A stretch of DNA of 59,896 nt, filler included, from 5 parts of 5 records of this genome joined end to end with filler, not necessarily neighbours in it, one strand, 5' to 3'; positions 1 to 15,482 are shown, counted from the whole stretch's first letter. Translations and numbers: made by a program. Notes: a model not told the origin generated them from the letters alone.

Positions 1-30
1 GGCTCGAACCAGCGACCTCGTCGATGTCAA
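1..30 (-). tRNA. tRNA-Val(GAC) 3'-half fragment (att core copy; homology ends at the anticodon loop)
   Basis: Reverse complement TTGACATCGACGAGGTCGCTGGTTCGAGCC = anticodon loop TTGACAT, 3' anticodon stem, variable loop and T-arm GGTTCGA. Sequence beyond 30 is not tRNA-like. Confidence 0.85.
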
Positions 31-94
31 AAATATGAACGGCTAGGCTTTCAGCCAAAAATCAGCTTTCAGCACCATCCCTCGCCTACAGTTA

Positions 95-107
95 AATCAA
101 AGGCTTA
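95..107 (+). promoter_or_regulatory. IHF consensus site in att arm
   Basis: AATCAAAGGCTTA matches WATCAANNNNTTR exactly, 65 nt from the att core. Confidence 0.6.
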
Positions 108-126
108 CCAAACCGTCTTGTCAGTA

Positions 127-147
127 TTGCAAACGGATTTGCAAAAC
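127..147 (+). repeat. Putative integrase arm-type sites (TTGCAAAC, TTTGCAAAAC)
   Basis: Tandem copies at 127-134 and 138-147; TTTGCAAAAC recurs at 6879-6888 on the other side of the core. Confidence 0.6.
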
Positions 148-199
148 CTGAGCACAGTTTATGGCAATCTCAGCCAAGCATCACGCATGGAGGTTTGCC

Positions 200-682
200 A
201 TGTCTGATAATCATGAGGTCACTATTCAACTGCGGGTCCCGGCGGCTGATGCAGATGCAATGGAAGAAGCAGTCAATGAGCTGCTTGCAAAAGCAAAGAC
301 CCAAGTGCGGCGTATAGCAGAAGAGGCAGAGCTTCGGACAATTGAACGTAAAAAGTTCAAGTACAGAACAAAGTCATTCTTCGCCTTAGCACCGGAAGCC
401 TTCAGGCTTTATCAAAAGTATCGCCAAGCTCATGCGTCCGCAAAAGCAACCTATTTGTTTATTGCCAACCAACTCCACTTGGATGCTCCCATAGCTGCTG
501 AAGCTCTCGTTCAAATCCATCGACGCAAACATATTAAGGAGCGCCAGAAAATGGCGCTGAAACTGGCTCGGCAAGGCCTGAGTAATACAGCAATTAGTAG
601 GCAACTGGGCGTATCGACAAGAACCGTTTCAAGGCTGCTTGTACCTCTTCTTCCATCAAAGTTGGGAGGCAAAAATGCATAG
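200..682 (+). CDS. DNA-binding protein with C-terminal helix-turn-helix
   Basis: GGAGG at 189-193 favours ATG 200 over 161; C-terminal GLSNTAISRQLGVSTRTVSRLL is a typical HTH. Confidence 0.75.
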   Translation: MSDNHEVTIQLRVPAADADAMEEAVNELLAKAKTQVRRIAEEAELRTIERKKFKYRTKSFFALAPEAFRLYQKYRQAHASAKATYLFIANQLHLDAPIAAEALVQIHRRKHIKERQKMALKLARQGLSNTAISRQLGVSTRTVSRLLVPLLPSKLGGKNA

Positions 683-971
683 CCTTCCAGCTACATTCGC
701 ACTTTGGCGACTTCAAGGTGAAACTGTTGCAAACCTCTTGTTTGACAGTCGCAGGAAACGCCAGTCCAAGGTGCTGAAAAGCGTTTTGAAAGTACTTGAT
801 CAAATTTGGACAAACCAATTTGGCGACCTGTACGTTGGTGAGCTGGTGCGACTGATCGATCTCCACCAGAAAGACGCCGCTTTGCTAGATGATACTGGCG
901 TTGGTGGTAATGCAGCAAACGATGATGATTTTGGCTTAGTGGCCTGCCCTTCGACCGAAGGGAATGCTTAA
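675..971 (+). CDS. Small hypothetical protein
   Basis: GGGAGG at 664-669; ATG 675 overlaps the upstream stop (ATGCATAG). Confidence 0.6.
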   Translation: MHSLPATFALWRLQGETVANLLFDSRRKRQSKVLKSVLKVLDQIWTNQFGDLYVGELVRLIDLHQKDAALLDDTGVGGNAANDDDFGLVACPSTEGNA

Positions 972-2752
972 TGATCTACACCCTAAAACCAGTTTGCACT
1001 TATGACGCACTGTCACAGCCCCGACCCGGTGGCGCTTTAGCGCCAGTGGTGCGGGAGGGGCTTGACCGGGCGGCGGCTCCTCACGCTGGCCCCGCAGGGG
1101 TCAGAAAACATTCTGACCCCTTGCCTAGCGGCGAGCGATTACTCTTTAAAAAACAACTCGCTTTCTCCAGCCTGTTTTTGAGTGTGGAGTGGTTAAACCT
1201 TTTTCAATTGCTCAATAAAAGCTGTTGTAAACGCGATGTAATGCGTAAATTCGGTTTCGAGAAACAAACCGGCCTCGACTTTATTTTCATGCCGGTTTAT
1301 TCGGTTGAATTTTCCAATTCGGCCTTGAATTTTGCGGATGTATATTTTGTATCTAGGTTCAAAAACCGTGATTATGCCGATAATGGAATTATTCAGAAGA
1401 ACGGCATTATTGCTCATGTTTTCATACACTGGCCTAAAAGGATAAAATTCCTCCACACGTTTTTCCTTCCAGACAGAGCTGTCGAGGTTTTGAAGCGCTT
1501 CAATATTTTTTTTCGCCAGTTCTTGAGAGACTTTGAGTTCTGCGATCATGCCGATTCTTATCGATTTCCGGAGAACATTTCTCTCTTTCTTGGCCTCACT
1601 AGCTCGCTCTTTCCATTCTGCTTGTTGTCGAGCATCCGCTTTTTTGTCCAAACGCAATTCTGCACGCAGTTGTCTAAAAAATCGCTGGTTTGTGTTGCGA
1701 TTGTTCCAAATAGCTATACCGATTGCAGCAAGGCCCGCGAGTGGCCCAGATATAGCCGCGGTAACATCAATCCAGTCTTTGTTACCGGAATAAGAACAAC
1801 AATATTGGGGCTGCCCCAACCAAAAGCCAATGTATCCAGCCGCAAAAATAACAAAAAGCGAAAGACAAAGAGTTTTCCAGTTGAGTTTCAAAATCATTCT
1901 TTTGACCTCTCTGATTTATTTTTCAACGAGCTCAAGACTAGGGTCCGGAGCTTTGGGGAGTTTGGAAAGCCATTTTTCGGTTTTAGCATACCGTTCTGGA
2001 AAATCCTGACGCTGAGCCTCAACAAGGGCATGCATATATTTCACAAGCGTTTTTCGCAGTGTTCCAGCGCTCCCATAAAGTGCGCGAAGGTCAATTGGGC
2101 CTGGGTTCGGTTTATTCAACGCGTCCCTGTATCGCCGCAAAGCTCTCTCATACTTAGATTGATTACGCGCGATTGCAGACACAGTATAGGCCGGCAGCGT
2201 CAACATTCGGTCGCCAAGGCTCTCATAAAACGGTCGAACAGGGTCAATGGCCTTTTTCTCGAAAAAATATTCAATAGCCTCTGCAGACAACTCACTGCTG
2301 CCGACAATGTATTTGAGATCAAAGGCGATATTATCAAGTTCAATTACCAAGTTGGTGCAGATCTGCTCTTGCTCAGCGCGTCTTCTGTTTTCAGAAACCA
2401 ACTCATTTTTTATGGAAATATAGAGTGCAACGAGCCCAGCAAGAGTTCCCGAAAGTGCAGAAAGGTATGGAATGAAATTGGGGTCACGATAATTGAAAAT
2501 AGAGAAGACAAGCAATGTCAGCACCAATATCAGTGCAGGCCAGCTCTTAGTTATTATTCTCTTCATTTTCATTTTTTGATCGCACCTTTTGCCATTCTGA
2601 ATACTAGAAATGTACCTGAAACGCTATCAATTAACGCAAACTACCGCTGTTCTATAGCGGTTCAGTGGATGAAAAATACCAATCCCCCCCTCCCTCTAAT
2701 AGGGGGGGTACTGTCTACAAACCCTCTTAAAAAGAGGGATGCTGGCATATGA
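971..2752 (+). CDS. 593-codon 'bridge' ORF antisense and in register to two cargo genes; product probably not a folded protein
   Basis: SD-like AAGGGA at 958-963, TAATG overlap at start, ATGA overlap with rep at end; stop-free over AT-rich DNA. Confidence 0.5.
   Translation: MIYTLKPVCTYDALSQPRPGGALAPVVREGLDRAAAPHAGPAGVRKHSDPLPSGERLLFKKQLAFSSLFLSVEWLNLFQLLNKSCCKRDVMRKFGFEKQTGLDFIFMPVYSVEFSNSALNFADVYFVSRFKNRDYADNGIIQKNGIIAHVFIHWPKRIKFLHTFFLPDRAVEVLKRFNIFFRQFLRDFEFCDHADSYRFPENISLFLGLTSSLFPFCLLSSIRFFVQTQFCTQLSKKSLVCVAIVPNSYTDCSKAREWPRYSRGNINPVFVTGIRTTILGLPQPKANVSSRKNNKKRKTKSFPVEFQNHSFDLSDLFFNELKTRVRSFGEFGKPFFGFSIPFWKILTLSLNKGMHIFHKRFSQCSSAPIKCAKVNWAWVRFIQRVPVSPQSSLILRLITRDCRHSIGRQRQHSVAKALIKRSNRVNGLFLEKIFNSLCRQLTAADNVFEIKGDIIKFNYQVGADLLLLSASSVFRNQLIFYGNIECNEPSKSSRKCRKVWNEIGVTIIENREDKQCQHQYQCRPALSYYSLHFHFLIAPFAILNTRNVPETLSINANYRCSIAVQWMKNTNPPLPLIGGVLSTNPLKKRDAGI
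1030..1130. other. GC-rich hairpin cluster, candidate single-strand origin (sso)
   Basis: TGGCGCT-TT-AGCGCCA (1030-1045) and AGGGGTCAGAA-AACA-TTCTGACCCCT (1096-1121); TAGCG motifs; lies upstream of the nick site. Confidence 0.5.
1193..1897 (-). CDS. Cargo membrane protein 1 (two N-terminal hydrophobic helices, charged coiled segment, helical domain)
   Basis: 234 aa with protein-like composition; paralogous motifs shared with 1916-2572. Confidence 0.8.
   Translation of the reverse strand: MILKLNWKTLCLSLFVIFAAGYIGFWLGQPQYCCSYSGNKDWIDVTAAISGPLAGLAAIGIAIWNNRNTNQRFFRQLRAELRLDKKADARQQAEWKERASEAKKERNVLRKSIRIGMIAELKVSQELAKKNIEALQNLDSSVWKEKRVEEFYPFRPVYENMSNNAVLLNNSIIGIITVFEPRYKIYIRKIQGRIGKFNRINRHENKVEAGLFLETEFTHYIAFTTAFIEQLKKV
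1916..2572 (-). CDS. Cargo membrane protein 2, paralog of 1193-1897
   Basis: SALSGTLAGLVALYISIKN vs AAISGPLAGLAAIGIAIWN; PVRPFYESL vs PFRPVYENM. Confidence 0.8.
   Translation of the reverse strand: MKMKRIITKSWPALILVLTLLVFSIFNYRDPNFIPYLSALSGTLAGLVALYISIKNELVSENRRRAEQEQICTNLVIELDNIAFDLKYIVGSSELSAEAIEYFFEKKAIDPVRPFYESLGDRMLTLPAYTVSAIARNQSKYERALRRYRDALNKPNPGPIDLRALYGSAGTLRKTLVKYMHALVEAQRQDFPERYAKTEKWLSKLPKAPDPSLELVEK
2601..2630 (-). promoter_or_regulatory. Candidate sigma70 promoter for the cargo operon
   Basis: TTGATA-18 nt-TAGTAT on the minus strand upstream of ATG 2572. Confidence 0.35.
2684..2708 (+). other. Rep_trans/MOB_T-type nick site hairpin (dso or oriT)
   Basis: C7-TCCCTCTAATA-G7. 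The loop contains CTCTAATAG as in the pT181-family dso; the C-run/G-run stem resembles ICEBs1 and Tn916 oriT. Lies 40 nt upstream of rep. Confidence 0.8.
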
Positions 2753-3945
2753 CAAGAAAGCGCTTGGATATTGATCTGCATTCCTGTGAAATCGATTATG
2801 GTTTTCTGATCTGCCATAACTTCGACTGGTGGCAAGAGGCGTTGAACCTCATGGTTCCAGTTACCTTGTGGAATAGCATGCTAAAGTCCAAGGAGGCTGC
2901 CAGAGAGTTAGACGATAGCAACAAGGCTTCCATTTCATTTGTTTTTGGTGGCGAGAAGTTCGAGCTTCAAGCCTACGGCCTGCGAAGCAAAGAGTTTGTC
3001 CTAATCAATGATGATATTCGGTTAGAGATCGGCCGCACCGATACGGCAATGGAATGGACGTTTGGTTGGCGTGCAACAGCCGCTGGCTTATGGGAGCACG
3101 GTGTAAAGGCACTCAGGCACCGTGTTTATACCATGTGCGACAAGGCGGGCCTGCGCCCAAGGGTTCGCGGACAATCGTGGATTAAACTTTCCAGAGCAGA
3201 TTATGCCTTCGATTTTTGGGCACCCGGTTTCACACCGGAAATGGAACCCGCTATTGCCGACAGATTTGTACTGCCTCCCGGTGTTAAAGGCAGTGGCAAT
3301 TTCTATCTAAAAAGCCCCAAAAAAGGCCAGTTTCATGCGCAACTGGAAACCTTCACTATTGGCAAGAAGGGTAGTCTGGAAATCCAGATATATGACAAGC
3401 TCACAGAAATCAGGGAAGCGTCAGGAAAAGAATGGATGCTGGATATATGGGCTGACTGTGGATACCAGCCCCCCGGCGAACCTTCTGATGTTTGGCGGTT
3501 GGAAGTCCGCATGTCTGGTGGCTGGCTCAAATCACGAACAGAAAAAGACCCAGAGAAGTTTTTGAGCCTCATGTGGCAGCTAATTGCGGAAGGCTTGCAA
3601 AGCCGCCGCTTAACGGTCCCACAAGGTGCTGACAGCAATCGTTCGCGTTGGCCTGTTCATCCACTATGGTCCCTTGCCATTGAAGCTGTTGGCGACCCTG
3701 AGGAGTTTGTGCCTGTAGGCCGTAAAATCACTGGAAAGCGTTCTGAGATCATCAGAAAATTCCAAACAGCTATAGCAGGCTATATGCGCACTGCTGCGGT
3801 TGTTGAGCATGGCATCACATTCACGGAAGAAGAACTCACAGAATTAGCGAGCAAGGCGGCGAGAGAGGCGCTTGCTGATAAGGAGCATAGTAAAAAGATA
3901 GCTCGTACGCAGGGACGGTATGAATTTGTGGATGAAGCTCAATGA
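2749..3945 (+). CDS. Rep_trans-family rolling-circle replication initiator / MOB_T-like relaxase
   Basis: Motifs LSRADYAFD, TFTIGKKG, IQIYDK (candidate catalytic Tyr), WRLEVR; adjacent nick hairpin. Confidence 0.8.
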   Translation: MTRKRLDIDLHSCEIDYGFLICHNFDWWQEALNLMVPVTLWNSMLKSKEAARELDDSNKASISFVFGGEKFELQAYGLRSKEFVLINDDIRLEIGRTDTAMEWTFGWRATAAGLWEHGVKALRHRVYTMCDKAGLRPRVRGQSWIKLSRADYAFDFWAPGFTPEMEPAIADRFVLPPGVKGSGNFYLKSPKKGQFHAQLETFTIGKKGSLEIQIYDKLTEIREASGKEWMLDIWADCGYQPPGEPSDVWRLEVRMSGGWLKSRTEKDPEKFLSLMWQLIAEGLQSRRLTVPQGADSNRSRWPVHPLWSLAIEAVGDPEEFVPVGRKITGKRSEIIRKFQTAIAGYMRTAAVVEHGITFTEEELTELASKAAREALADKEHSKKIARTQGRYEFVDEAQ

Positions 3946-4142
3946 CCGCCGCACTTCAATCATATACCCAAAATAGCCCAGCCACTACGGCAAGGCTCGC
4001 CATATCTGGTGGTGACGGCCAACACCAATTTAACAGACCCGGAACCCCCCATAGTTCCTCCCCCGGCATATTGCCGAAACTCTTCGGGCTCATGCCCGGT
4101 AAGACGCCATTAATATTGAAAGGAATTCATTATGGCTACTAA
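3942..4142 (+). CDS. 66-codon ORF bridging rep and the first XRE gene
   Basis: ATGA overlap with rep stop; its own stop overlaps the next start (ATGGCTACTAA); runs over hairpin-rich DNA. Confidence 0.4.
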   Translation: MTAALQSYTQNSPATTARLAISGGDGQHQFNRPGTPHSSSPGILPKLFGLMPGKTPLILKGIHYGY

Positions 4143-4995
4143 CAAACAGAATATCCCTTATGACGAACTGTCCGACTTTGGAGAGCGTCTTCGCTATGAA
4201 CGGGAAAAACAAGACCTCAGTCGACCAGCACTGTCGAAGCTAACTGGCAAAGCTATTTCTGCGCGTGTGATTGCGCACCTTGAGGACGGCAATACGGAAC
4301 CAAAACTCAAGCACAGTGAAATTTTGGCAGAAGTATTAGGCGTTGACGAAGTTTGGTTGAACCATGGCCTAACCAACGAAGACCAAAGCGAGCCAGATCA
4401 AGGCTTTGATAGCGTTCTTGGTGACCCAGTCAACGAATTGGACGAAACCAATTCGGGTGATTTCATGGGTGGTATCGACCAAGAAGCATCTGACAATATC
4501 GATGATGGCCCACAAACATTGGTACCCAGCAATGACAATCAAATGAGGCTCTACGTCGACACTGCATATGAATTGCTGGAGGTAATAGCTGCCATCAGGC
4601 ACGAAGGCTTTTTGCATCATATCAGAAAAATGCCCGGCTTGATTGAGCAAGCCATTGAAACCGGCAAGTTCCTCGAATTATCAGAAATTGAAGAGTTAGC
4701 GTCAGACCACAATGTCAACATTGATGGTGATATCCCCTTTGCGGAGCGCGAACCAACGGAAGATGAAATAAACGAAGTCATTCATCGTCTAATTGATACA
4801 GCGCTTCTTGGTATCGACCTCCATCAAGTGGACGTGGATAGTTTGCTCGCTTTTGCAAAAAGAAATCGAGTTCACCTTACGAGGCTTAACCGAAGGACCA
4901 TCTCAGCGTTGATAAATAAGTTGAGGCCAGTCTATTGGAACAGAGCGCTTGAGGATGGACTAACTGTTTCCACTTTCCTCTCGGAGACAGGCTAG
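4132..4995 (+). CDS. XRE-family HTH regulator with acidic linker and unknown C-terminal domain
   Basis: FGERLRYEREKQDLSRPALSKLT...LEDGNTEPKL...LAEVLGVDEVWL; SD AAGGA. Confidence 0.85.
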   Translation: MATNKQNIPYDELSDFGERLRYEREKQDLSRPALSKLTGKAISARVIAHLEDGNTEPKLKHSEILAEVLGVDEVWLNHGLTNEDQSEPDQGFDSVLGDPVNELDETNSGDFMGGIDQEASDNIDDGPQTLVPSNDNQMRLYVDTAYELLEVIAAIRHEGFLHHIRKMPGLIEQAIETGKFLELSEIEELASDHNVNIDGDIPFAEREPTEDEINEVIHRLIDTALLGIDLHQVDVDSLLAFAKRNRVHLTRLNRRTISALINKLRPVYWNRALEDGLTVSTFLSETG

Positions 4996-5678
4996 TGAAA
5001 ACGGGCTGGATTGACCAAAAATTAGTTCAGCCCAAATTTTGGTTGCTTTTTGTATATTTTATGTCATTATTGGATCATATGTTACTAATTTGTACTATGG
5101 ATACAATTTTGAAATTAAAATCAGAAAAATATGATGCTGCTAAACACTTTGAAAAGCCCGAAACCCTTGGGGATGAGCTTATTCGATGCAGGAAAAGGCT
5201 TGGGCTGTCCCGAACAGAACTTTCAAAGCGTTCAGGCATAGCCGCAAATTCCATATCCAAATATGAACAAGCAGGCCGAGTTGGCGGCCAATACCCACCA
5301 ATACCAAAACTTGCGAAGCTTTGCGTTGAGCTAGGCATTGATGCGCGTGAATTGCTCGCGATGACGCTAGAGGATAATCAGGATGCAATTACTCTGCTTG
5401 AAACTGGAGGCAGCCGGGACGACTATGAAAATCTGATGGGTGAGTTGACCGAGTTCGCAGAAAACCCTCAAAAGCCAATGGTGCTGTTTGACCGGAACAA
5501 CAATATGTTTTCTGTCACTCACATTCCCATGCAACAGCACCTTGCAAACCCATGGGATAAAACAGCAAAATTAAAAGAACCCGCGGAGGCTAGTTTGGCG
5601 ACGAGCTCCACGGGTTCAAATCCAAAATCAACACCAATCGCAAAAAAGGAGCCTGAAGATGGACAGTCCTCAGATTAA
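4995..5678 (+). CDS. Second XRE-family HTH regulator (GTG 4995 or ATG 5097 start)
   Basis: LGDELIRCRKRLGLSRTELSKRSGIAANSISKYE...LAKLCVELGID; GGAGA SD and TAGTG overlap support the GTG start. Confidence 0.85.
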   Translation: MKTGWIDQKLVQPKFWLLFVYFMSLLDHMLLICTMDTILKLKSEKYDAAKHFEKPETLGDELIRCRKRLGLSRTELSKRSGIAANSISKYEQAGRVGGQYPPIPKLAKLCVELGIDARELLAMTLEDNQDAITLLETGGSRDDYENLMGELTEFAENPQKPMVLFDRNNNMFSVTHIPMQQHLANPWDKTAKLKEPAEASLATSSTGSNPKSTPIAKKEPEDGQSSD

Positions 5679-6006
5679 TCCTCCTGATGAAATTGCACAA
5701 GCCCTTGCGTCCCTGCCGCTCTTTTTAAGCGTCAAGCGGGCTGCTGAGTTTTTAGGTTTCTGCGCTTCCACTATCCGAGAGATGGTGAAACGCGGAGAAC
5801 TAACAGCTCTTCGCCCAGAGGGTCGTAACATGCGTATTCCGCGCTATGCCATTACTCAATATCTGGAGGACAACACATGGCACGCCCAAGAAAAGGCCCC
5901 CGGCTCGTCCGTATCAACGGAAAAGACAACTGGTATGTCCGAGATGGACGCGGCACACAATTTACGACAGGAACTGCGGATAGGGAGAGCGCTGAATGCA
6001 CGCTAG
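5659..6006 (+). CDS. xis: Excisionase-like HTH protein
   Basis: FLSVKRAAEFLGFCASTIREMVKRGELTA...RIPR; SD AAGGAG; directly before and overlapping the integrase. Confidence 0.8.
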   Translation: MDSPQINPPDEIAQALASLPLFLSVKRAAEFLGFCASTIREMVKRGELTALRPEGRNMRIPRYAITQYLEDNTWHAQEKAPGSSVSTEKTTGMSEMDAAHNLRQELRIGRALNAR

Positions 6007-6926
6007 CCTCCTATATCGCAAAGAAGGCCATTCCAGCCCAGCCAACAATTGCCCAATTGCTGGATATGAGGATGGAAGACCTGCGAGCACGCAATGTGCC
6101 GTCCGCAAGCAACACTGTGTATCGTCACAATGCCTTGAAGCGCCATTTCGGACCACTAAGGCCGGAACAGCTTTCTATCGCCCTGATCAGCAAATTTCGG
6201 CAAGAGCACAACCATGTGCAAGCGATGCTGCGGGAATATCTACTGGAATTGAAATCAACGCTGAAAATGGCGAAGGACAACAATATAATTGCAACGGTCC
6301 TGCCCATATCAGTGCCAGCCAAAAACCCACCACGAGACAGGTTTCTAAGCCACGAGGAGGCCGCAAAGCTTTGGAACGCGGCTCACGGCGCTCATATCAA
6401 GCTTTTCATTCATCTGGCATTGGTTACCGGCGCACGCAAAGGCGCGATACTACAATTGACGTGGGACCGTGTGGACCTGGACAACGGGCGTTTGGATTTC
6501 AACGACCCGAACTGGCCAATAACCAACAAGCGCCGAACACTATCACCAATCGAACCGGCAGTGATCGAAATGCTGACCGAAGCAAAGACATTTGCAGAAA
6601 CCAACCACGTAATAGAGTTCAACGGGAAACCATTGAAAGACATAAAGAAGGGCTTCGCCTTGGCAGCAAAGAAAGCAGGCCTGAGTGGTGTAACACCGCA
6701 CACGTTGAAGCATACGGCAATATCGTGGCTGGCACAGGCAGGAAGCCCGATAGAACATATTGCTGCAATGACGGCCACAAACGCCAACACGGTGCGCCGC
6801 ATCTATCAGAAATTTGCACCGGAATACCTTCAAGACGAGGCGAAAATACTGTCAAATGCCATGAGTTTTACACACACATTTGCAAAACAGGCCCAATCAA
6901 CACAATCAAGCGAGGCCTCAATATGA
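5877..6926 (+). CDS. int: Tyrosine recombinase / integrase
   Basis: TGARKGAILQLTWDRVDL, TPHTLKHTAISW, C-terminal VRRIY; SD GGAGGA; adjacent to att. Confidence 0.93.
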   Translation: MARPRKGPRLVRINGKDNWYVRDGRGTQFTTGTADRESAECTLASYIAKKAIPAQPTIAQLLDMRMEDLRARNVPSASNTVYRHNALKRHFGPLRPEQLSIALISKFRQEHNHVQAMLREYLLELKSTLKMAKDNNIIATVLPISVPAKNPPRDRFLSHEEAAKLWNAAHGAHIKLFIHLALVTGARKGAILQLTWDRVDLDNGRLDFNDPNWPITNKRRTLSPIEPAVIEMLTEAKTFAETNHVIEFNGKPLKDIKKGFALAAKKAGLSGVTPHTLKHTAISWLAQAGSPIEHIAAMTATNANTVRRIYQKFAPEYLQDEAKILSNAMSFTHTFAKQAQSTQSSEASI

Positions 6927-6958
6927 TTGCAAGTTACTGTAATATAAGGGTTTTAAAA

Positions 6959-6986
6959 TGGTGGTCGGTACTGGGCTCGAACCAGC
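6959..6986 (-). tRNA. tRNA 3' end (T-arm, acceptor strand, CCA), truncated by contig end; att core copy
   Basis: Reverse complement GCTGGTTCGAGCCCAGTACCGACCACCA; overlaps and continues the fragment at 1-30, giving a 45-nt core. Confidence 0.85.
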
Positions 6987-7086
6987 NNNNNNNNNNNNNN
7001 NNNNNNNNNNNNNNNNNNNNNNNNNNNNNNTTAATTAATTAANNNNNNNNNNNNNNNNNNNNNNNNNNNNNNNNNNNNNNNNNNNN
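6987..7086. other. Artificial contig spacer
   Basis: 100 nt of N with TTAATTAATTAA (stops in all six frames) at 7031-7042. Confidence 0.98.
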
Positions 7087-7872
7087 GAAAACTCGGAAGA
7101 CATTTATGCGGGTATTGAATACGAAGCTGAAACTGACAAAGCCAAGAAACTGATCAAATTCTTGCGTGAAGAAATGGGTGTGAGCAAAATTCGTTTCCCC
7201 GAAACTTCAGGCATCGGCATCAAGCCAATTTCCAAAGAGGGCACTGAGCGCCTCTTCCGCAAGGCCGTTCAGTACGCCATCGACAACAAAAAGCCCTCAG
7301 TAACAATTGTGCACAAGGGCAACATCATGAAGTACACCGAAGGCGCTTTTGCGGCCTGGTCGTACGCTTTGGCCAAGAACGAATTCGGCGCCGAACTGCT
7401 GGACGGCGGCCCTTGGATGAAAATCAAGGCTGCGCATGGTGACATCGTGATCAAAGACGTGATTGCCGATGCTTTCTTGCAGCAAATTTTGCTGCGCCCT
7501 GCTGAGTACAGCGTGATTGCGACCATGAACTTGAATGGCGACTACATTTCCGATGCATTGGCCGCTCAGGTCGGTGGTATTGGTATTGCCCCCGGTGCGA
7601 ATCTGTCCGACTCCATCGCGATGTTCGAGGCTACCCACGGTACCGCACCGAAGTACGCCGGCAAAGACTACGTGAATCCAGGTTCACAAATTTTGTCTGC
7701 CGAAATGATGCTGCGTCACATGGGTTGGGTTGAGGCTGCTGATCTGATTATCACTTCCATGGAGAAATCCATTTCGTCCAAGAAGGTGACCTACGACTTC
7801 GCACGCTTGATGGATGGCGCTACACAGGTGAGCTGTTCCGGGTTCGGTCAGGTGATGATCGACCACATGTAA
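7087..7872 (+). CDS. icd: NADP-dependent isocitrate dehydrogenase, 5'-truncated
   Basis: [52 protein letters not shown]. Confidence 0.97.
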
Positions 7873-7893
7873 CAGCCAGCTTTTGTGGCAAGT

Positions 7894-7965
7894 AAAAAAG
7901 CCCCTGTTACACGGGGCTTTTTTTATGGGCAAGAAAAAAGCCGGCTTGGGGCCGGCTTTCTTCTT
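7894..7965. terminator. Two intrinsic terminators between convergent icd and csp genes
   Basis: AAAAAAGCCCC-loop-GGGGCTTTTTTT (7894-7924) and AAAGCCGGC-loop-GCCGGCTTTCTT (7931-7965). Confidence 0.8.
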
Positions 7966-7991
7966 AATCGGTGGTTTGATTATTTTACTTA

Positions 7992-8213
7992 TCAGGCGGC
8001 GCTGGTTGCGTCCATCACAGAGATGTTCTGAGCCTGCTTACCTTTTGGTCCATCCACCACTTCAAAAGTCACTTTCTGACCTTCTTTGAGTGTGCGGAAT
8101 CCAGATGCCTGGATTGCTGAAAAGTGGGCGAAAAGTTCATCGCTCCCTTGATCTGGAGTAATAAAACCAAAACCCTTTGCATCATTGAACCATTTTACGG
8201 TGCCGGTCGCCAT
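7992..8213 (-). CDS. cspD: Cold-shock domain protein, CspD by synteny
   Basis: [18 protein letters not shown]...FAHFSAI; GGAGG SD; divergent from clpS. Confidence 0.9.
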
Positions 8214-8885: not shown

Positions 8886-11206
8886 TTGCGCAAGAGTTGG
8901 AAGTTAGTTTGCACATGGCATTTGTTGACGCACGTCAGCAAAAGCATGAATTCATCACGGTAGAGCACCTTCTATTGGCCTTGCTGGACAATCCTTCAGC
9001 GGCTGAGGTGTTACGTTCATGCTCATGCGATGTCGAAGAAATTCGAAAGAACCTGCAAAATTTCATCAAGGACAACACCCCTGTGGTGTCAGGTCAGGAT
9101 GAGGTGGACACTCAGCCCACACTTGGATTTCAGCGCGTTATTCAGCGTGCCATCATGCACGTTCAGAGCACCTCCAACGGCAAGAAAGAAGTGACTGGTG
9201 CAAATGTGTTGGTGGCGATCTTCGGTGAGAAAGATTCACATGCAGTGTATTACCTGCACCAGCAGGGTATTACCCGTCTGGACGTGGTGAACTACATTTC
9301 ACACGGCATTACAAAAACTCCCCAGGCGCCTGCGCCGAAGCCTGAGAATTCCCAGAACGAGAATCAGGAGCAGGAGGCCGAGGCCACCCAAAATGTGGGT
9401 GACAAGCAATCGCCTCTGGACCAGTACACCCAGAATTTGAATGCATTGGCCAAGGAAGGGAAAATTGATCCGCTGATTGGCCGTGAGCAGGAAGTGGAGC
9501 GGGTTATTCAGGTGCTGTGCCGCCGCCGCAAAAACAACCCGCTCTTGGTGGGTGAGGCTGGTGTGGGTAAAACCGCGATTGCCGAGGGCTTGGCATGGAG
9601 AATTGTGCAGGGTGACGTGCCGGAAATTTTGGCAACAGCGCAGGTGCATTCACTGGACATGGGCGCGCTGCTGGCGGGCACCAAATACCGTGGCGATTTC
9701 GAACAGCGTTTGAAAGCGGTATTGAAACAGTTGAAAGCAAACCCGGATTCCGTGTTGTTCATTGATGAAATCCATACCCTGATTGGCGCAGGCTCCGCTT
9801 CTGGCGGCACGCTGGATGCGTCCAACTTGCTCAAGCCAGCCTTGTCCTCCGGGCAGCTGAAGTGCATCGGCGCAACCACCTTTACTGAATATCGTGGCAT
9901 TTTCGAGAAAGACCATGCACTGTCACGTCGATTCCAGAAAATTGATGTGTCTGAGCCCACTGTGGAACAAACCATTGAAATTTTGCGAGGCCTCAAGAGC
10001 CGGTTCGAAGACCACCATGGCGTGAAGTACTCCAGCGCGGCCATTTCGGCAGCCGCTGAGTTGTCGGCCAAGTTTATCAACGATCGTCATTTGCCCGACA
10101 AGGCCATTGACGTGATTGATGAAGCCGGTGCGGCGCAGCGTATTTTGCCAAAGAGCAAGCAGCGAAAAACAATTACCAAGGGCGACATTGAAGACATCGT
10201 GTCCAAGATCGCGCGCATTCCACCACAGTCGGTGAATACCGACGATCGGAACAAGCTTGCGACTCTCGATCGAGATTTGAAAGCCACCGTGTTTGGGCAG
10301 GACCCGGCCATTGAGGCGCTGGCCAATGCCATCAAAATGTCGCGTGCCGGTTTGGGCAAGGCTGACAAGCCGATTGGATCGTTCCTGTTCAGCGGCCCCA
10401 CGGGTGTCGGTAAAACAGAGGTGGCCAAACAGTTGGCGTTCATTCTCGGTATTGAAATGCTGCGGTTTGACATGTCGGAGTACATGGAGCGCCATGCTGT
10501 TTCCCGGCTGATTGGTGCCCCCCCCGGCTACGTTGGTTTTGACCAGGGCGGTTTGCTGACTGAAGCCATTACCAAGAAACCGCATTGCGTGTTGTTGCTG
10601 GATGAAATTGAAAAAGCGCACCCTGATGTGTTCAACATTCTGTTGCAGGTCATGGACAATGGCACTTTGACCGACAACAACGGTCGTAAGGCGGACTTCC
10701 GCAACGTGATCATTATCATGACCACCAATGCAGGTGCAGAGGCTTTGACCAAGCGCGGTATTGGCTTTATGGAGTCGAAGGTTCAGGGCGACGAGATGGA
10801 AGACATCAAACGCATGTTCAGCCCCGAGTTCCGCAACCGCCTTGATTCTGTCATTTCATTCCGCGCGCTGGATGAAGAAATCATTCTTCGCGTGGTCGAC
10901 AAGTTCCTGATGGAACTTGAAGAGCAGTTACACCAGAAGAAAGTCGATGCAGTATTCACAGACGATCTGCGTAAACATCTGGCGAAAAAAGGTTTTGATC
11001 CACTCATGGGTGCCCGACCCATGCAACGTTTGATCCAGGACACCATTCGCAAAGCTTTGGCTGATGAATTGCTGTTTGGCAAGCTGGTCAGTGGCGGCAA
11101 GGTGACCGTGGATCACGACGTAGAAAACGACCAGGTGTCGCTGACTTTTGATGAAGGTTCATCAGGTCAGGAGTCGGAGAGCGGTACTGAGGTGGCGGTT
11201 GATTAA
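8882..11206 (+). CDS. clpA: Clp protease ATP-binding subunit ClpA
   Basis: [11 protein letters not shown] start; Walker A motifs GEAGVGKT and [11 protein letters not shown] loop; ATGA-coupled to clpS. Confidence 0.97.
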
Positions 11207-11263
11207 AGGCACTTTTTTAAGCCGACCCGTCGGGATCAAGACTGTTTTTGTTGAAGTTTGAAT

Positions 11264-11300
11264 AGCCTGGGTGTTCCTCTTGCGGACACCCAGGCTTTTT
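11264..11300 (+). terminator. Intrinsic terminator after clpA
   Basis: AGCCTGGGTGT...ACACCCAGGCT followed by a T run. Confidence 0.8.
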
Positions 11301-11339
11301 GTTTTCTGCAGCGGCTCACCGGTTCAGTTTTAAGATTGA

Positions 11340-12488
11340 CTATTGGTGTACCTTGCCAAGGCAGCTCCGATTTCTACCTTTGTTTTTGGCTTGATAGAGT
11401 GCATGGTCGGCCAGTGCCATGGTGCGATCAATGTTGTCGCTGTGCGTGATGTCACAGATCCCCGCTGAGAATCCCACCTTGCCTTGTCCATTCAATCGGA
11501 TTCTATCGACAATTCTTTGAGCGTCCTGGGCAGTGCAATTGGCCAGAAGCACTGCAAATTCCTCCCCTCCAATACGCGCGATCAGATCACCCGGCCTGAA
11601 ATTCATTCGAAGTGTTTCGGCAAATTCGCGAAGCCGAATATCTCCGGCTTCGTGGCCGAAGGTGTCGTTGTATTGCTTGAAGTAGTCGATGTCAATAATC
11701 GCAACACTGCCTTGAAGCTGATTCTGCGCTTGCATTTTTCGGAGGTAGGCACTGGTCATGTCTTGCCATCCCCGGCGATTGAGCAAACCGGTGAGTGGGT
11801 CGTTGCGAGCCTGATTGCTCAGGTGAAGCAGTTCGAGTGCAAAGCGTTGGCGCAAATTTGATTGTCGCCACAATGTCAGGCTGACAAAACTCACGGAGTA
11901 AATCAACACCACCAGAGTGAGAATCAAGTTATTGCGCTGTAATTCATTGACCTTGTCATCGGCCATCGGTACGTCTTTCTTCAGAATCCTATTGAACACC
12001 CCAAGCTCGATCAGCCAGAACTCGATACTTTGGGTGTCGGGCTTGCCCATTGTTGCAAGTTGCTGGTCCATCGCGATCAAGTGTTCTCGAAGGCTTGCAA
12101 CCGATTCAGTCAGCGCGCTGTGGGTGTTGATCGTTTCGATGACAGCCAGTCTCGCAGCCAGTTGATTGAGTAATTCTTGGGGTGAGCCATAACCTCGCGT
12201 TTCCAGACCAAGTTTGGTTTCATAGGCGTGCTCATTGCCGAGGTGATGCAGGGCCGTGCTTTGTACGACCAGGTCTTGCAGGGATACTTCAAGTAGTCGT
12301 CTCTTGGTCAGGTCACCTTGAATGTGATGTGCTTCGCTGTAGTTAAATACAGCCACTGCGGCGAGAATGATGCAGAGAGCCAACCAAAAATAACGGATGG
12401 CTTTTTCAGAACAGGGACGCAAATACCGTATTGCGTGAACCCACCATGTGTGGCCTGTAGATGTGGCTGGCCCTCCGCCTGAGTTCAT
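11340..12488 (-). CDS. Membrane-anchored diguanylate cyclase
   Basis: Two hydrophobic segments; DPLTGLLNRR, DIDYFKQYND, RPGD I-site, GGEEF. Confidence 0.92.
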   Translation of the reverse strand: MNSGGGPATSTGHTWWVHAIRYLRPCSEKAIRYFWLALCIILAAVAVFNYSEAHHIQGDLTKRRLLEVSLQDLVVQSTALHHLGNEHAYETKLGLETRGYGSPQELLNQLAARLAVIETINTHSALTESVASLREHLIAMDQQLATMGKPDTQSIEFWLIELGVFNRILKKDVPMADDKVNELQRNNLILTLVVLIYSVSFVSLTLWRQSNLRQRFALELLHLSNQARNDPLTGLLNRRGWQDMTSAYLRKMQAQNQLQGSVAIIDIDYFKQYNDTFGHEAGDIRLREFAETLRMNFRPGDLIARIGGEEFAVLLANCTAQDAQRIVDRIRLNGQGKVGFSAGICDITHSDNIDRTMALADHALYQAKNKGRNRSCLGKVHQ

Positions 12489-12554
12489 TGTTGTCCTGAT
12501 GATTCACAATGACACTCAGTGGCAAATCCTCTTGGAGTGGTTCCTTCTGATTTT

Positions 12555-12758
12555 TTAACGGGTACCCGTGCTGCCGAATCCGCCTTCGCCACGCTCACTG
12601 GGCGTGAAATCGCTGACCACTTTGAAGTCGGCATGTGCCACGGGCAAGATGACCAGTTGAGCAATCCGCTCCATCGGTTCAATGGTCACTGGCGCCTGGC
12701 TGCGGTTCCACGCTGAAACCATTAGTGAGCCCTGGTAGTCGGAATCGATCAACCCCAC
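12555..12758 (-). CDS. dut: dUTPase, 5'-truncated
   Basis: [25 protein letters not shown]. Confidence 0.96.
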
Positions 12759-12858
12759 NNNNNNNNNNNNNNNNNNNNNNNNNNNNNNNNNNNNNNNNNN
12801 NNTTAATTAATTAANNNNNNNNNNNNNNNNNNNNNNNNNNNNNNNNNNNNNNNNNNNN
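12759..12858. other. Artificial contig spacer
   Basis: N run with TTAATTAATTAA at 12803-12814. Confidence 0.98.
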
Positions 12859-12887
12859 AGGCTGTTAGCCCTAAGGGCTAACAGCCT
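12859..12887. repeat. REP-like palindrome, copy 1
   Basis: AGGCTGTTAGCCC-TAA-GGGCTAACAGCCT. Confidence 0.8.
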
Positions 12888-13265
12888 GTAGGACAACATT
12901 TCTCTAATTAGAATATTCAACAACTCAGCAACTTACAGCCCAGCCCATACGCCCACAAGCTCAATGATTCAAACGACAGGTATTCCACACTAAACGGCCA
13001 GTATTTCAGACTCAACGACAAGTCTCAAGGGGCCAAGAGCACAAAAGCCGCCAGATTCAGCCTCAAACTCGTATTCCACCCTCAAGACCCGAAGACTCGT
13101 GACGCGCTCAGCGGCTTCGGGCTTCAATCCCATCAACCAACAAGAGAACTCAAAAAGGCGCGCCCCAAGCGCAAGCCGCTCAGTCAACAAACACCACGCA
13201 TCAATGAACCACACATAGTGGGTTAACAATTCGAAGAACTGAACAAGGTAAAATTCCTGCTTTTG

Positions 13266-14423
13266 TTACGACAACGCCGCCAGCGCCTGCTCCATGTCCT
13301 GCCGCAAATCCTTAAACGCTTCAATACCGACCGACATACGCACAAGCGTCTGACTAATTCCCATTGCATTGCGCTCGGCTTCAGTCAAACCAGCATGTGA
13401 ACTCTTGGCCGGCAGTGTAATCAGCGATTCCACACCGCCCAGGCTCGGCGCTACAACCGGAATCTCTAGCGCCTGAATAAACTGATGCAATTTTGTCAAA
13501 TCGCTGTTTAACTCAAAACACAACATGCCGCCGCAGCCATTAAACAAATCCGCCGCGCGCTGATGATCCGGGTGCGACTCCAGGCCGGGATACACCACGC
13601 GACCGACCTGCGCCTGTGCCGCCAACCACTGTGCGAGGCCGCCGGCATTTGCGTTAATCCGCTCCATACGCAGCGCCAGCGTTTTAACTCCACGCTGAAT
13701 CAGGAAGCAGGTGTGCGGGTCCAGCGTCGCACCATAGAGTTTCTGGTATTTTAGCACCGGCCGCATTTGTTCGGCAGCCCCAAGTACCGCGCCGCCAACA
13801 ACATCAGAATGACCATTCAAATATTTTGTTAAGGAATGACACACAAGGTCAAACCCCAATGCCAGCGGCTGAAAGTTAACCGGCGGCGCAAATGTCGCGT
13901 CAATAATGCTGATTAACTGATGCTCGCGCGCAAATGCGACAATCCCGCGCAAATCCGCCACGTTTAAGAGCGGGTTGGTGATCGCTTCACAGTAAAACAT
14001 TGCAGTCGTATCGCGCAGTTTGTTAAGCCACTCGGCACGGTCGTCCTTATCCACAAAGTCAACGCTGATGCCGCGCCCCGGCAATTCGTCGCGGAATAAA
14101 GCCTGCGTGCCGCCGTATAGTCCCGACTGTGCCAGCACGTGATCTCCAGGTCGCAGTTTACTTAACACCGCACTCGAAATCGCCGCCATGCCGCTGCCAC
14201 TTACCACGCAGCTCTCCGCACCTTCCAGAGCCGCGAGTTTATCCTGCAGCGCAATCTGGTTCGGCGAGTTGTTGTAGCGCAAATAGCGCAGTGAATCTAT
14301 GTCCGCATCTGCGGCAAATTCGTGCATCGCCGTCTGATATATCGGCGTGATTACGGCGCCGTCAGGATGTGTTTCCCCGGCGTGTACCGCGCGTGTATCG
14401 GCGCTCTGCTCCCGTTTTGTCAT
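13266..14423 (-). CDS. Cys/Met-metabolism PLP enzyme (cystathionine gamma-synthase/lyase family)
   Basis: SGMAAI, LYGGT, IDATFA, HSLTKYLNGHSD (PLP lysine), SLGGVESL. Confidence 0.93.
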   Translation of the reverse strand: MTKREQSADTRAVHAGETHPDGAVITPIYQTAMHEFAADADIDSLRYLRYNNSPNQIALQDKLAALEGAESCVVSGSGMAAISSAVLSKLRPGDHVLAQSGLYGGTQALFRDELPGRGISVDFVDKDDRAEWLNKLRDTTAMFYCEAITNPLLNVADLRGIVAFAREHQLISIIDATFAPPVNFQPLALGFDLVCHSLTKYLNGHSDVVGGAVLGAAEQMRPVLKYQKLYGATLDPHTCFLIQRGVKTLALRMERINANAGGLAQWLAAQAQVGRVVYPGLESHPDHQRAADLFNGCGGMLCFELNSDLTKLHQFIQALEIPVVAPSLGGVESLITLPAKSSHAGLTEAERNAMGISQTLVRMSVGIEAFKDLRQDMEQALAALS

Positions 14424-14499
14424 GTTTAAGTCTCCCCGTGCGAGTTAAAAGATGATGTCAAAATTTCTGCCGCCCGGGTGACGCGGACTTAAACAGCGG

Positions 14500-15435
14500 C
14501 TAAACCAGTTCGAGGAGAGTAACGTCGGGCCGGGCGCCCAGACGCAAGCCGCGCATATTGCCGATGCCTTTGCTGATATGTAGCTGGCGGCCTTCCCAGG
14601 CATACAGTCCCGCTACAAAACGTTTATCCTTAACCGGCGCGTAAGGCTCACCAATCAGTGGCAGCGAGAGCTGGCCGCCATGCGTATGGCCCGAAAGCAT
14701 TAAGTCCCAACTGTAATTTTTGATACGCTGTTTTGTGTCCGGGTTGTGCGCCAGGACAACTTTGGGATTAAGGTCATTTCTGTTAACTGTACTGAATGCT
14801 TCTGCCGGTTTAAACTCTTCGCCCCACAGATCCCCGATGCCCACCAGGGAAATTTCGCGATTTAAGGGGCGAACCGTGGTTGAACGGTTGTGCAGAACTT
14901 CAATCGCCGAGCCTTCCAGCAAAGTCTCCAGTCTTCTCGTCGTTTGCGGACCACCGCGGCGTGCAGCCCACGTACTTCCGTCGTGATTTCCGAACACAGC
15001 AAAAACCGGGATCTCAGGAGTCGCCGAATTCTGCCGCCAAACGTTAAACAAAGGCAAGACGCGCTGCTCCAGATCCTGCGGCGCTTCGTCGCCACTGGTG
15101 TAGAAATCGCCGGTAACAACAATCAGATCAGGCAGCAGCGCAATACCGCGCTGAATAGCAGTACAAATGTACGGCGTTGACATCCGGCCTGAGACATGCA
15201 AATCACTTAAGTGCAGCAGACGCACAGGCCGCGAGTCATTCAGTCCAATATCAACACGCTGCTGTTTAACTTCCAGCCACTCAGGCTCAATACAGCGCAT
15301 GTACAACAGAGTCGATGCCGCCAAACCACCCAGGCTCCACATGAAACCGCGGCGGCTGATCCGGCGGCCAGGTTTCTCCTGACCGTCGTCATCTTGCATC
15401 TTACTCGTGTTTAACCCGCTATTCTCTTTCAACAT
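14500..15435 (-). CDS. YaeI/YkuE-like metallophosphoesterase; start uncertain
   Basis: SDLH, TGD, GNHD, HNPD, GHTHGGQ; N-terminal SRRGF twin-arginine-like motif. Confidence 0.9.
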   Translation of the reverse strand: MLKENSGLNTSKMQDDDGQEKPGRRISRRGFMWSLGGLAASTLLYMRCIEPEWLEVKQQRVDIGLNDSRPVRLLHLSDLHVSGRMSTPYICTAIQRGIALLPDLIVVTGDFYTSGDEAPQDLEQRVLPLFNVWRQNSATPEIPVFAVFGNHDGSTWAARRGGPQTTRRLETLLEGSAIEVLHNRSTTVRPLNREISLVGIGDLWGEEFKPAEAFSTVNRNDLNPKVVLAHNPDTKQRIKNYSWDLMLSGHTHGGQLSLPLIGEPYAPVKDKRFVAGLYAWEGRQLHISKGIGNMRGLRLGARPDVTLLELV

Positions 15436-15482
15436 GAACCCTCTGGCCCTGGCTGCGTTCGCACAATCATACACACAATGCC

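Follow-up and report, generated by a model that had tools for sequence, protein, structure and literature searches.

The window analysed here is a stretch of 59,896 nt that consists of five contigs joined by N spacers. The element under study is contig 1 (positions 1–6986, 47% GC), and its sequence is best explained as that of an integrative rolling-circle element of about 7 kb whose tyrosine integrase would act at a tRNA-Val gene. The plus strand carries a chain of overlapping open reading frames (ORFs). Several links of this chain, which we will name bridges, run antisense over cargo genes, through non-genic spacers and, out of frame, over the integrase gene. Selection keeps stop codons out of the long bridging frames, and this restricts the choice of codons in the genes which they overlap.

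A chain of open frames kept free of stop codons

Contig 1 was closed in silico to a circle of 6973 bp (length mod 3 = 1). A stop-to-stop ORF map of this circle revealed that every plus-strand base lies within an ORF and that each stop codon overlaps the next start. The map agreed exactly with the chain listed in an earlier reading of the DNA made without database searches (the sequence-only reading), namely 161/200–682, 639/675–971, 971–2752, 2749–3945, 3942–4142, 4132–4995, 4995–5678, 5659–6006 and 5996 to the TGA at 205–207. All nine joints overlap, by 1, 4, 4, 11, 1 (TAGTG at 4995), 20, 11, 8 and 8 nt, beginning at 971. The purine runs resembling Shine-Dalgarno (SD) sequences, claimed in the same reading for nearly all starts, were also found: GGAG-like runs are located 6–12 nt upstream of most of them. 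Overlapping stop and start codons along co-directional ORFs are the arrangement of a translationally coupled operon. The members of the chain and the genes opposite to it are the following.

200–682 (open from 161), plus strand: orf1, HTH_23 DNA-binding protein (Pfam HTH_23, E 1.9e-7)
675–971 (open from 639), plus strand: orf2, of no known family; 8-nt overlap with the orf1 stop
971–2752, plus strand: bridge ORF of 593 codons (open from 929, 1824 nt); starts in TAATG and ends in the ATGA of rep; no Pfam match, no coding signature
1193–1897, minus strand: m1, cargo membrane protein of 234 aa with two transmembrane helices; no TTA, CTA or TCA codons; coding signature in the minus frame
1916–2572, minus strand: m2, paralog of m1, cargo membrane protein of 218 aa in the codon register of m1; no TTA, CTA or TCA codons
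2749–3945, plus strand: rep, putative distant Rep_trans-like rolling-circle initiator (weak Pfam Rep_trans match and fold match)
3942–4142, plus strand: short bridge ORF of 66 codons; joins rep (ATGA) to xre1 (11-nt overlap); not conserved
4132–4995, plus strand: xre1, HTH_3 regulator, last gene of the chain (Pfam HTH_3, E 1.4e-7)
5097–5678, plus strand: xre2, HTH_31 regulator, probable first gene of the chain; longest ORF from GTG 4995, Pfam domain at residues 58–120 of that ORF
5659–6006, plus strand: xis-like HTH_17 protein (Pfam HTH_17, E 1.1e-10)
5877–6926, plus strand: int, tyrosine integrase (Pfam Phage_integrase, E 1.1e-14, 55.1 bits at a cutoff of 27.1)
5996–6986, plus strand: ORF in an alternative frame (+2 to int); its start precedes the xis stop by 11 nt, and it runs through attP (window 14–207) to the TGA at 205–207; 1185 nt

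Gene families were assigned by Pfam and the ORFs of contig 1 were also compared with PHROGs; neither collection held a match to orf2 or a family for the short bridge at 3942–4142. The start of xre2 at ATG 5097 was picked by inspection. The bridge at 971–2752 lies codon for codon antiparallel over m1 and m2 and also crosses a GC-rich element and an origin-like hairpin. Within the frame over int an in-frame ATG at 6923 forms ATGA with the int stop. After crossing attP this frame ends in the TGA at 205–207, which overlaps the orf1 start ATG 200 as ATGNNTGA.

Relatives were sought among 38 candidate stretches, of which only L001, a Kordiimonadaceae metagenome-assembled genome with a Rep 82% identical to that of the window, was confirmed. 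The window and L001 are the only complete elements with the same gene set; L081 and L066 are fragments, and L080 has a different Rep and a different tRNA target.

Together, m1 and m2 contain no TTA, CTA or TCA codon, the exact complements of the three stop codons, in 452 codons with 50 Leu and 26 Ser codons, where about 17 were expected. In the plus-strand genes of the element these triplets make up 3.6% of all codons, 20% of the Leu and 24% of the Ser codons, which corresponds to P ~9e-9 for m1 and m2. A second background was taken from the other four contigs of the window (7087–59896; 28 long ORFs, mean GC 53%), with 2.59 such codons per 100. At this rate P is ~8e-6, and none of the 28 ORFs lacks the three codons. 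Ten minus-strand cargo genes from five loci hold a single in-frame TTA, CTA or TCA, compared with about 85 expected from the codon use of the plus-strand genes: nine have none and the tenth has one CTA. At the rate of the other contigs 62 would be expected (P ~1e-25). Among 112 long background ORFs only three are devoid of the three codons, and two of those have 68–70% GC. A general depletion of these trinucleotides was rejected, as they are common out of frame, with 6–20 per cargo gene in each of the other two frames. Codons ending in A are used normally (20–34%) in the other four-fold families of the cargo genes. The bridge is an antiparallel ORF of more than 180 bp with significant avoidance of antisense stops, and adjacent cargo genes share one codon register.

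The avoidance extends beyond genes. Non-genic spacers within bridges contain no stop in 643 codons of the bridge frame, compared with 22 and 38 in the other frames (P ~5e-14); the non-genic part of the 971–2752 bridge accounts for 137 of these codons. The frame crossing attP has no stop in 85 and 84 codons, versus 5/3 and 4/2 in the other frames.

For the same-strand frame over int we carried out the shuffling of synonymous codons proposed in the sequence-only reading. None of 5000 shuffled int genes stayed open in each of the three elements in which the natural frame is open, and the mean number of stops was 10.5 for the window, 10.5 for L001 and 13.6 for L081, whose integrase is only 49% identical to that of the window. 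The integrase of L080 (57% identity) served as a control and showed 17 stops in each alternative frame. The int products of the window and L001 are 68% identical and 54% of the third codon positions differ, while the products of the alternative frame are only 32% identical. Thus, openness over int survived near-saturating change without conservation of the peptide. The short link from GTG 4995 to 5097 is different. It spans 34 codons at 30% GC with 0, 2 and 1 stops in the three frames, and its openness is compatible with chance. The earlier proposal that non-protein bridges were laid over the antisense cargo, the origin-like hairpin, the integrase and attP therefore stands for all of these, but possibly not for the promoter-like DNA at 4995–5097.

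The question which strand codes was approached by comparison of m1 with its homolog mB of L001. The two proteins are 36% identical by BLASTP (E 9e-48) and 40% identical in MAFFT and global alignments; the plus-strand products opposite to them share only 23% (E 3e-8). Differences between homologs in the minus cargo frame fall on codon position 3 most often, then 1, then 2. The minus frames also have the purine- and G-rich first codon position of benchmark genes, which is absent from six of seven bridge frames. Minus-strand cargo genes are real proteins, and the bridge peptides are not conserved. The low identity and the missing coding signature led us to reject the plus-strand ORF of 593 aa as a real gene. 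An alternative genetic code was likewise rejected as unnecessary, given that table 11 translates the real genes normally. No purifying selection on the overlapping products was detected, at a divergence so large that weak constraint could persist. The depletion of TTA, CTA and TCA, the stop-free spacers and the low identity of the bridge products bear out the earlier view of the bridges as maintained open frames that are not protein-like. Selection for translatability is well supported.

The predicted excision circle and its relatives

The first 13 nt of contig 1 are identical to its last 13 nt, and no further match was present among overlap lengths of 5–199. Both ends extend exactly 30 nt into an att repeat of about 47 nt (30+30−13). 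Since each end stops 30 nt into the repeat, a break of a k=31 assembly graph at this site is indicated, and contig 1 is therefore no proof of a circular molecule. The circle of 6973 bp is the expected excision product, as its predicted junction matches attL and attR of the integrated relative L001. The right end of contig 1 carries the CCA/T-arm side of the 3' part of tRNA-Val on the minus strand and the left end continues to the anticodon loop. No tRNA gene was found in the whole window. With the 3' part of tRNA-Val at both ends and an integrase above the Pfam cutoff, contig 1 has the features of a tyrosine recombinase element of tRNA genes. A filamentous (inovirus-like) prophage was considered and rejected: the tested ORFs of the contig 1 element matched no Pfam or PHROGs family of Zot-like assembly ATPases or coat proteins. 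The sites of contig 1 outside the genes are given below.

1–30, minus strand: att repeat, right-hand 30 nt (3' part of tRNA-Val(gac), anticodon-loop side); forms attP with 6957–6986 in the in-silico circle; matches the 51-bp direct repeats flanking L001 beside tRNA-Val
123–147 and 6864–6888, plus strand: direct repeat pair of 25 nt, 80% identity, contains TTTGCAAAAC, one copy on either side of the att core (repeat family D2); candidate arm-type sites of the integrase
1000–1145, no strand: GC-rich structured element, single-stranded DNA fold z −5.1; candidate single-strand origin or other cis element
2684–2719, no strand: hairpin CCCCCCC..GGGGGGG (C7/G7) and conserved TACTGTCTACA block just upstream of rep, fold z −3.7
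5003–5033, plus strand: terminator-like hairpin of 12 pairs and a T-rich tail, with AT-rich, promoter-like DNA behind it as far as 5096

The assignment of rep is based on weak sequence similarity and a model. Its match to Rep_trans (PF02486) reached 17.5 bits (E 3e-3), which is below the gathering cutoff of 29.6. Six of nine aligned Rep homologs matched the same family at E<=0.1 (best 2e-4), all below the cutoff. A structural model of Rep built from nine sequences (pLDDT 67) was compared with the PDB using Foldseek. The top six matches were RepSTK1 (4cij) and RepDE (4cwe/4cwc), with E 2.8e-6 to 9e-6, probability 1.00 and a TM-score (target) of 0.37–0.49. The modelled fold resembles solved Rep_trans proteins, which suggests a distant Rep_trans-like rolling-circle initiator. 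A sequence-profile search of the PDB with Rep returned nothing, phage records gave no match to Rep, and plasmids gave three weak partial matches of 26–31% identity. Rep homologs of 24–49% identity occur in 20 of 401 genomes of a class sample and 13 of 401 of an order sample. The ten such loci with mapped ORFs look like other, mostly co-directional phage-like modules. At L027 and L029, whose Rep homologs have 32–33% identity, the same DNA carries long ORFs on either strand; in L027, for instance, an ORF of 587 aa on the plus strand is opposed by one of 371 aa on the minus strand.

Just upstream of rep, the TACTGTCTACA/hairpin block is a conserved island in DNA that is otherwise unalignable between the window and L001 (about 9935–9970 in L001). 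The block, which may be a double-strand origin or nick region, is enclosed in the bridge ORF. The GC-rich element further upstream is, over about 135 nt, 90–92% identical in the window, L066 (G565:C61) and L080 (G502:C1). It is kept despite highly diverged flanks and different Reps (Rep_trans-like in the window, Rep_1 in L080); its stems are kept and the hairpin loops vary. The element was not found in G001, the genome of L001, and an Rfam scan of contig 1, this element included, gave nothing significant.

The cargo proteins m1 and m2, each with two N-terminal transmembrane helices, had no convincing Pfam, PHROGs or PADLOC family. A word search of 5.8 billion proteins yielded only two homologs, and the Atlas search gave only unnamed clusters and weak leads below 0.8 (DUF4760, retron Ec48 effector). 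Neither metagenome_contigs nor viral_contigs contained a match to the m family or to Rep. In the order sample, 4 of 401 genomes had a match to the m family, a weak one in one case, and so did 3 of 45 genomes of the bacterial family; close relatives of the integrase were present in 5 of 401 genomes. Two m-like genes are solitary and adjoin the 3' ends of tRNA genes. One lies at 9532–10389 of L065 beside tRNA-Phe (10724–10798), with its antisense frame broken by one stop, the other at 1635–2297 of L067 beside tRNA-Val (2466–2541), with the antisense frame fully open. The ORF maps show no integrase nearby, and these genes may be what is left of elements, or else minimal cassettes.

The homologous element of L001 is flanked by direct repeats of 51 bp, of which one lies within tRNA-Val(gac), and corresponds to a circle of 9297 bp. 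Five genes are located on its minus strand. Three of them (mA, mB and mD) are m-family members, the other two (mC and mE) seem unrelated, and all five are covered by the plus-strand ORFs 6403–8154, 8145/8154–10004 and 11194–12843. ATGA joints were found between orf1 and the bridge, between bridge and rep and between rep and the following bridge. The latter, between rep and xre1, has about 310 codons over the fifth antisense gene, where the equivalent in the window has 66. The frame overlapping int crosses attP and ends at orf1 in the same ATGNNTGA despite several indels in the spacer. In the integrated state of L001 the int frame (13906–15438, 510 codons in total) continues antisense through tRNA-Val and about 500 nt into host DNA; transcripts exiting int would then be antisense to the tRNA gene.

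The fragment L066 (G565) contains a homolog of orf2 (41% identity over 61 aa, E 3e-15), followed by a bridge of 320 codons over an m gene and ATGA into the next gene at the contig end. An assignment of this downstream gene as Rep_1 was rejected, since the match is limited to 11 N-terminal residues. The L080 (G502) element, integrated at tRNA-Thr, encodes a Rep_1 initiator and a YobI-like NTPase. Its bridge runs over the shared GC-rich element and an m-like gene and enters rep by an ATGA joint, and in the L080 circle an ORF coming from around the int stop crosses attP and reaches the start of the bridge. The label orf2-like for an ORF of L080 was discarded because no similarity to orf2 was found (E 17). 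The YobI-like protein is a P-loop NTPase of 1209 aa at 10116–13745 on the plus strand (Pfam E 3e-117). Two small minus-strand membrane proteins with Cys motifs at 9286–9868 may form defence cargo together with it. Two small minus genes downstream of the xre1-like gene of L080 are uncovered and contain 4–5 of the avoided codons.

Overlapping stop/start codons (ATGA, TAATG, ATGNNTGA and others) thus join the frames in the window, L001, L066 and L080. The joint from bridge to rep is ATGA in the window, L001 and L080, and the same motif connects the bridge of L066 to its downstream gene. In all three elements of which both ends are known (window, L001 and L080) the frame crossing attP ends on the next start. 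So far the bridge phenomenon is confined to Kordiimonadaceae.

Ring closure, however, was not conserved. The sequence-only reading had described a gapless ring that keeps ribosomes on one circle-length transcript. Against this stand the terminator-like hairpin at 5003–5033 with the promoter-like DNA behind it, an ORF gap at about 12970–13064 of L001 at the spot homologous to the link between xre1 and xre2, and the break of the L080 chain after the xre1-like gene. Therefore, the chain is linear and would be continuous only in the excised circle. What recurred when homologs were circularised, as had been proposed, were overlap chains over diverging bridge peptides (23% versus 36–40% for the cargo, 32% versus 68% for int); gapless closure did not. 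Judged from the sequences compared, the conserved object is a linear relay from xre2 via xis, the frame over int, attP, orf1, orf2, one or more bridges, rep and a further bridge to xre1.

Possible functions of the open frames

We propose that the act of translation and not the bridge product would be the selected trait. Ribosomes following RNA polymerase on the otherwise untranslated, C-rich antisense RNA would block Rho-dependent polarity. Bridge translation might also limit RNA decay or the pairing of sense and antisense RNA. Termination and reinitiation at the overlapping stop and start codons would hand ribosomes from frame to frame and finally on to rep, and an early stop in a bridge would leave one or more kb of naked RNA ahead of rep. 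Because the chain crosses attP, expression of rep from a promoter on the xre2 side would require excision. That a relay of this kind keeps ribosomes on the message to rep, with translation as the selected trait, Rho avoidance as its benefit and rep expression dependent on excision, appears to us about evenly balanced between true and false. Rho as the selective agent and ribosomes on the bridges are both inferred. Circumstantial support comes from base composition: bridge and int RNA has more C than G, and 25–39% of its 78-nt windows have a C/G ratio >=1.3, compared with 1–3% in rep and xre1. Antisense or horizontally acquired RNA of this type is a target of Rho termination as long as it stays untranslated. 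According to a review (PMC12360218), Rho keeps antisense transcription down within coding regions, and rut sites located inside genes are shielded by translation.

A number of points weigh against this proposal. All examples come from 4–5 loci of one bacterial family, with only two complete elements that share a gene set. As int is equipped with a start and an SD-like run of its own, shielding does not obviously require translation in a second frame over it. rep also has its own SD-like run, and an internal promoter upstream of it would be compatible with the result of a crude promoter scan. Translation of 600–1200 codons of junk is costly. Finally, the solitary m-like genes of L067 (fully covered) and L065 (one stop) also keep the antisense frame in a host-like context, which would be equally in keeping with a cassette trait, a relic or a trait of the relay.

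An unlikely but serious competitor is a regulatory switch, in which rep is coupled to a very long leader ORF and cargo mRNAs or convergent transcription act as antisense repressor in quiescence, so that Rho is not required. Control of rep genes by leader-ORF coupling and antisense RNA is known from IncFII and IncB/I plasmids. The ATGA joints in front of rep in the window, L001 and L080, and in front of the downstream gene in L066, agree with such a switch, as does the full complementarity of the bridge to the cargo mRNAs. A short leader near rep would suffice for this purpose, however; a switch alone explains neither the 600–1200 open codons nor the bridging of int and attP.

We regard it as still less probable that the bridge ORFs, like the int-overlapping frame, are genes for functional, rapidly evolving overlapping proteins whose production is served by the avoidance of stops. 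The avoidance is strong and frame-specific, the frames begin with ATG preceded by SD-like runs, and solitary m-like genes outside complete elements retain the antisense frame, all of which speaks for this view. Nevertheless, the products over the cargo and over int are far less conserved than the proteins opposite to or overlapping them, six of seven bridge frames lack the first-position composition of the benchmark, and the bridges have no Pfam match. Synonymous change in int is no slower than in rep: 52% versus 45% of the codons for identical residues differ. Furthermore, length and content of the bridges shift freely with the cargo, as seen for the 66-codon bridge of the window and its counterpart of about 310 codons in L001.

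Codon avoidance could in principle serve the cargo genes themselves, by dependence on or escape from certain tRNAs, with the open antisense frames as a by-product. The three avoided codons are indeed read by three specific tRNAs and are avoided in the solitary m-like genes as well. But the avoided set coincides with the complement of the stop codons, non-genic spacers are open in the same frame and neighbouring genes share its register, each bridge begins and finishes in a stop/start overlap, the same-strand frame over int is equally stop-avoiding, and the plus-strand genes of the window use the three codons freely (3.6%). This explanation is very improbable. Chance or a compositional artefact such as shadow ORFs of GC-rich DNA is practically negligible overall and refuted for the long links, although frame −1 is the commonest for long shadow ORFs and the short link at 4995–5097 is compatible with it, in view of a cargo GC of 41–49%, probabilities of 1e-5 to 1e-25, the absence of any open shuffle and the rarity of background ORFs without the three codons.

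Comparison with known systems and implications

Translational coupling, the control of rep by leader ORFs and the translation-dependent escape from Rho are textbook knowledge. The chain resembles coupled operons with ATGA or TAATG joints, since all of its joints are overlaps and an SD-like run precedes most of them; the difference is that four or five members of the present chain are not conserved genes but gene-sized frames over antisense genes, an origin, attP and, out of frame, int. As with IncFII tap-repA and IncB/I repY-repZ, an upstream ORF of seemingly irrelevant product overlaps the rep start, here in ATGA. Those leaders comprise a few tens of codons and are controlled by small antisense RNAs. 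Here, ATGA is present at 2749–2752, but the upstream ORF is no short leader: it has 593 codons (about 1200 in L001) over whole antisense genes.

The proposed purpose, carrying transcription of acquired DNA through Rho-prone RNA, is shared with protection from Rho polarity, regulatory upstream ORFs and antiterminators such as lambda N/Q, RfaH and P4 Psu. The proposed shield differs from these, as it would consist of ribosomes on dedicated stop-free frames and limits the codons available to the genes underneath. Neither a protein nor an RNA with an antiterminator role was recognised.

Long antiparallel ORFs, for instance opposite dnaK, have been described to avoid stops without negative selection on the product, and the authors suggest that translation may matter (bioRxiv 10.1101/724807). 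The frame-specific avoidance of antisense stops reported there resembles the present case. In contrast to those ORFs, the frames here are chained by stop/start overlaps to same-strand genes and run through spacers and unrelated genes in one register, upstream of rep in a mobile element.

The integrative and conjugative elements (ICEs) ICEKp1, ICEclc and ICEEc1 show state-dependent transcription across the joined ends of the excised element, which for ICEKp1 is state-dependent int transcription (PMC13023037). With these ICEs the present element would share a transcription unit that is complete only after circularisation; the junction there is one of promoter and gene, while here an open frame crosses attP and ends on the start of the next gene in three elements. 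In full-text literature searches we found no account of a mobile element whose antisense cargo, origin, attP and integrase are crossed by chained, gene-sized frames without stops. Tn916 is likewise transcribed across its joined ends after excision.

In its most general form our proposal describes a class of elements that shields an operon running once around the circle by functionless, gene-sized ribosome-carrier frames in place of antiterminators. These frames would be chained by termination and reinitiation over attP, origin, integrase and cargo, cargo genes running against the flow would have to be recoded, and rep would be licensed only by excision. We advance this wider claim tentatively and with somewhat less than even confidence.

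If translation itself is selected, the element would be a clean natural case of ribosome retention on mRNA shaping the codon usage of the opposite strand over kilobases, with an additional passenger ORF out of frame over an integrase. It would represent an escape of mobile DNA from Rho-dependent silencing that does not need a dedicated factor, and it would explain in concrete terms why genome surveys find long stop-avoiding antiparallel ORFs, at least in some instances. Annotators would be warned that long, well-started ORFs can be translation units without being genes. The system would also offer a simple test bed, since single changes can be made that are synonymous for the cargo and nonsense for the bridge.

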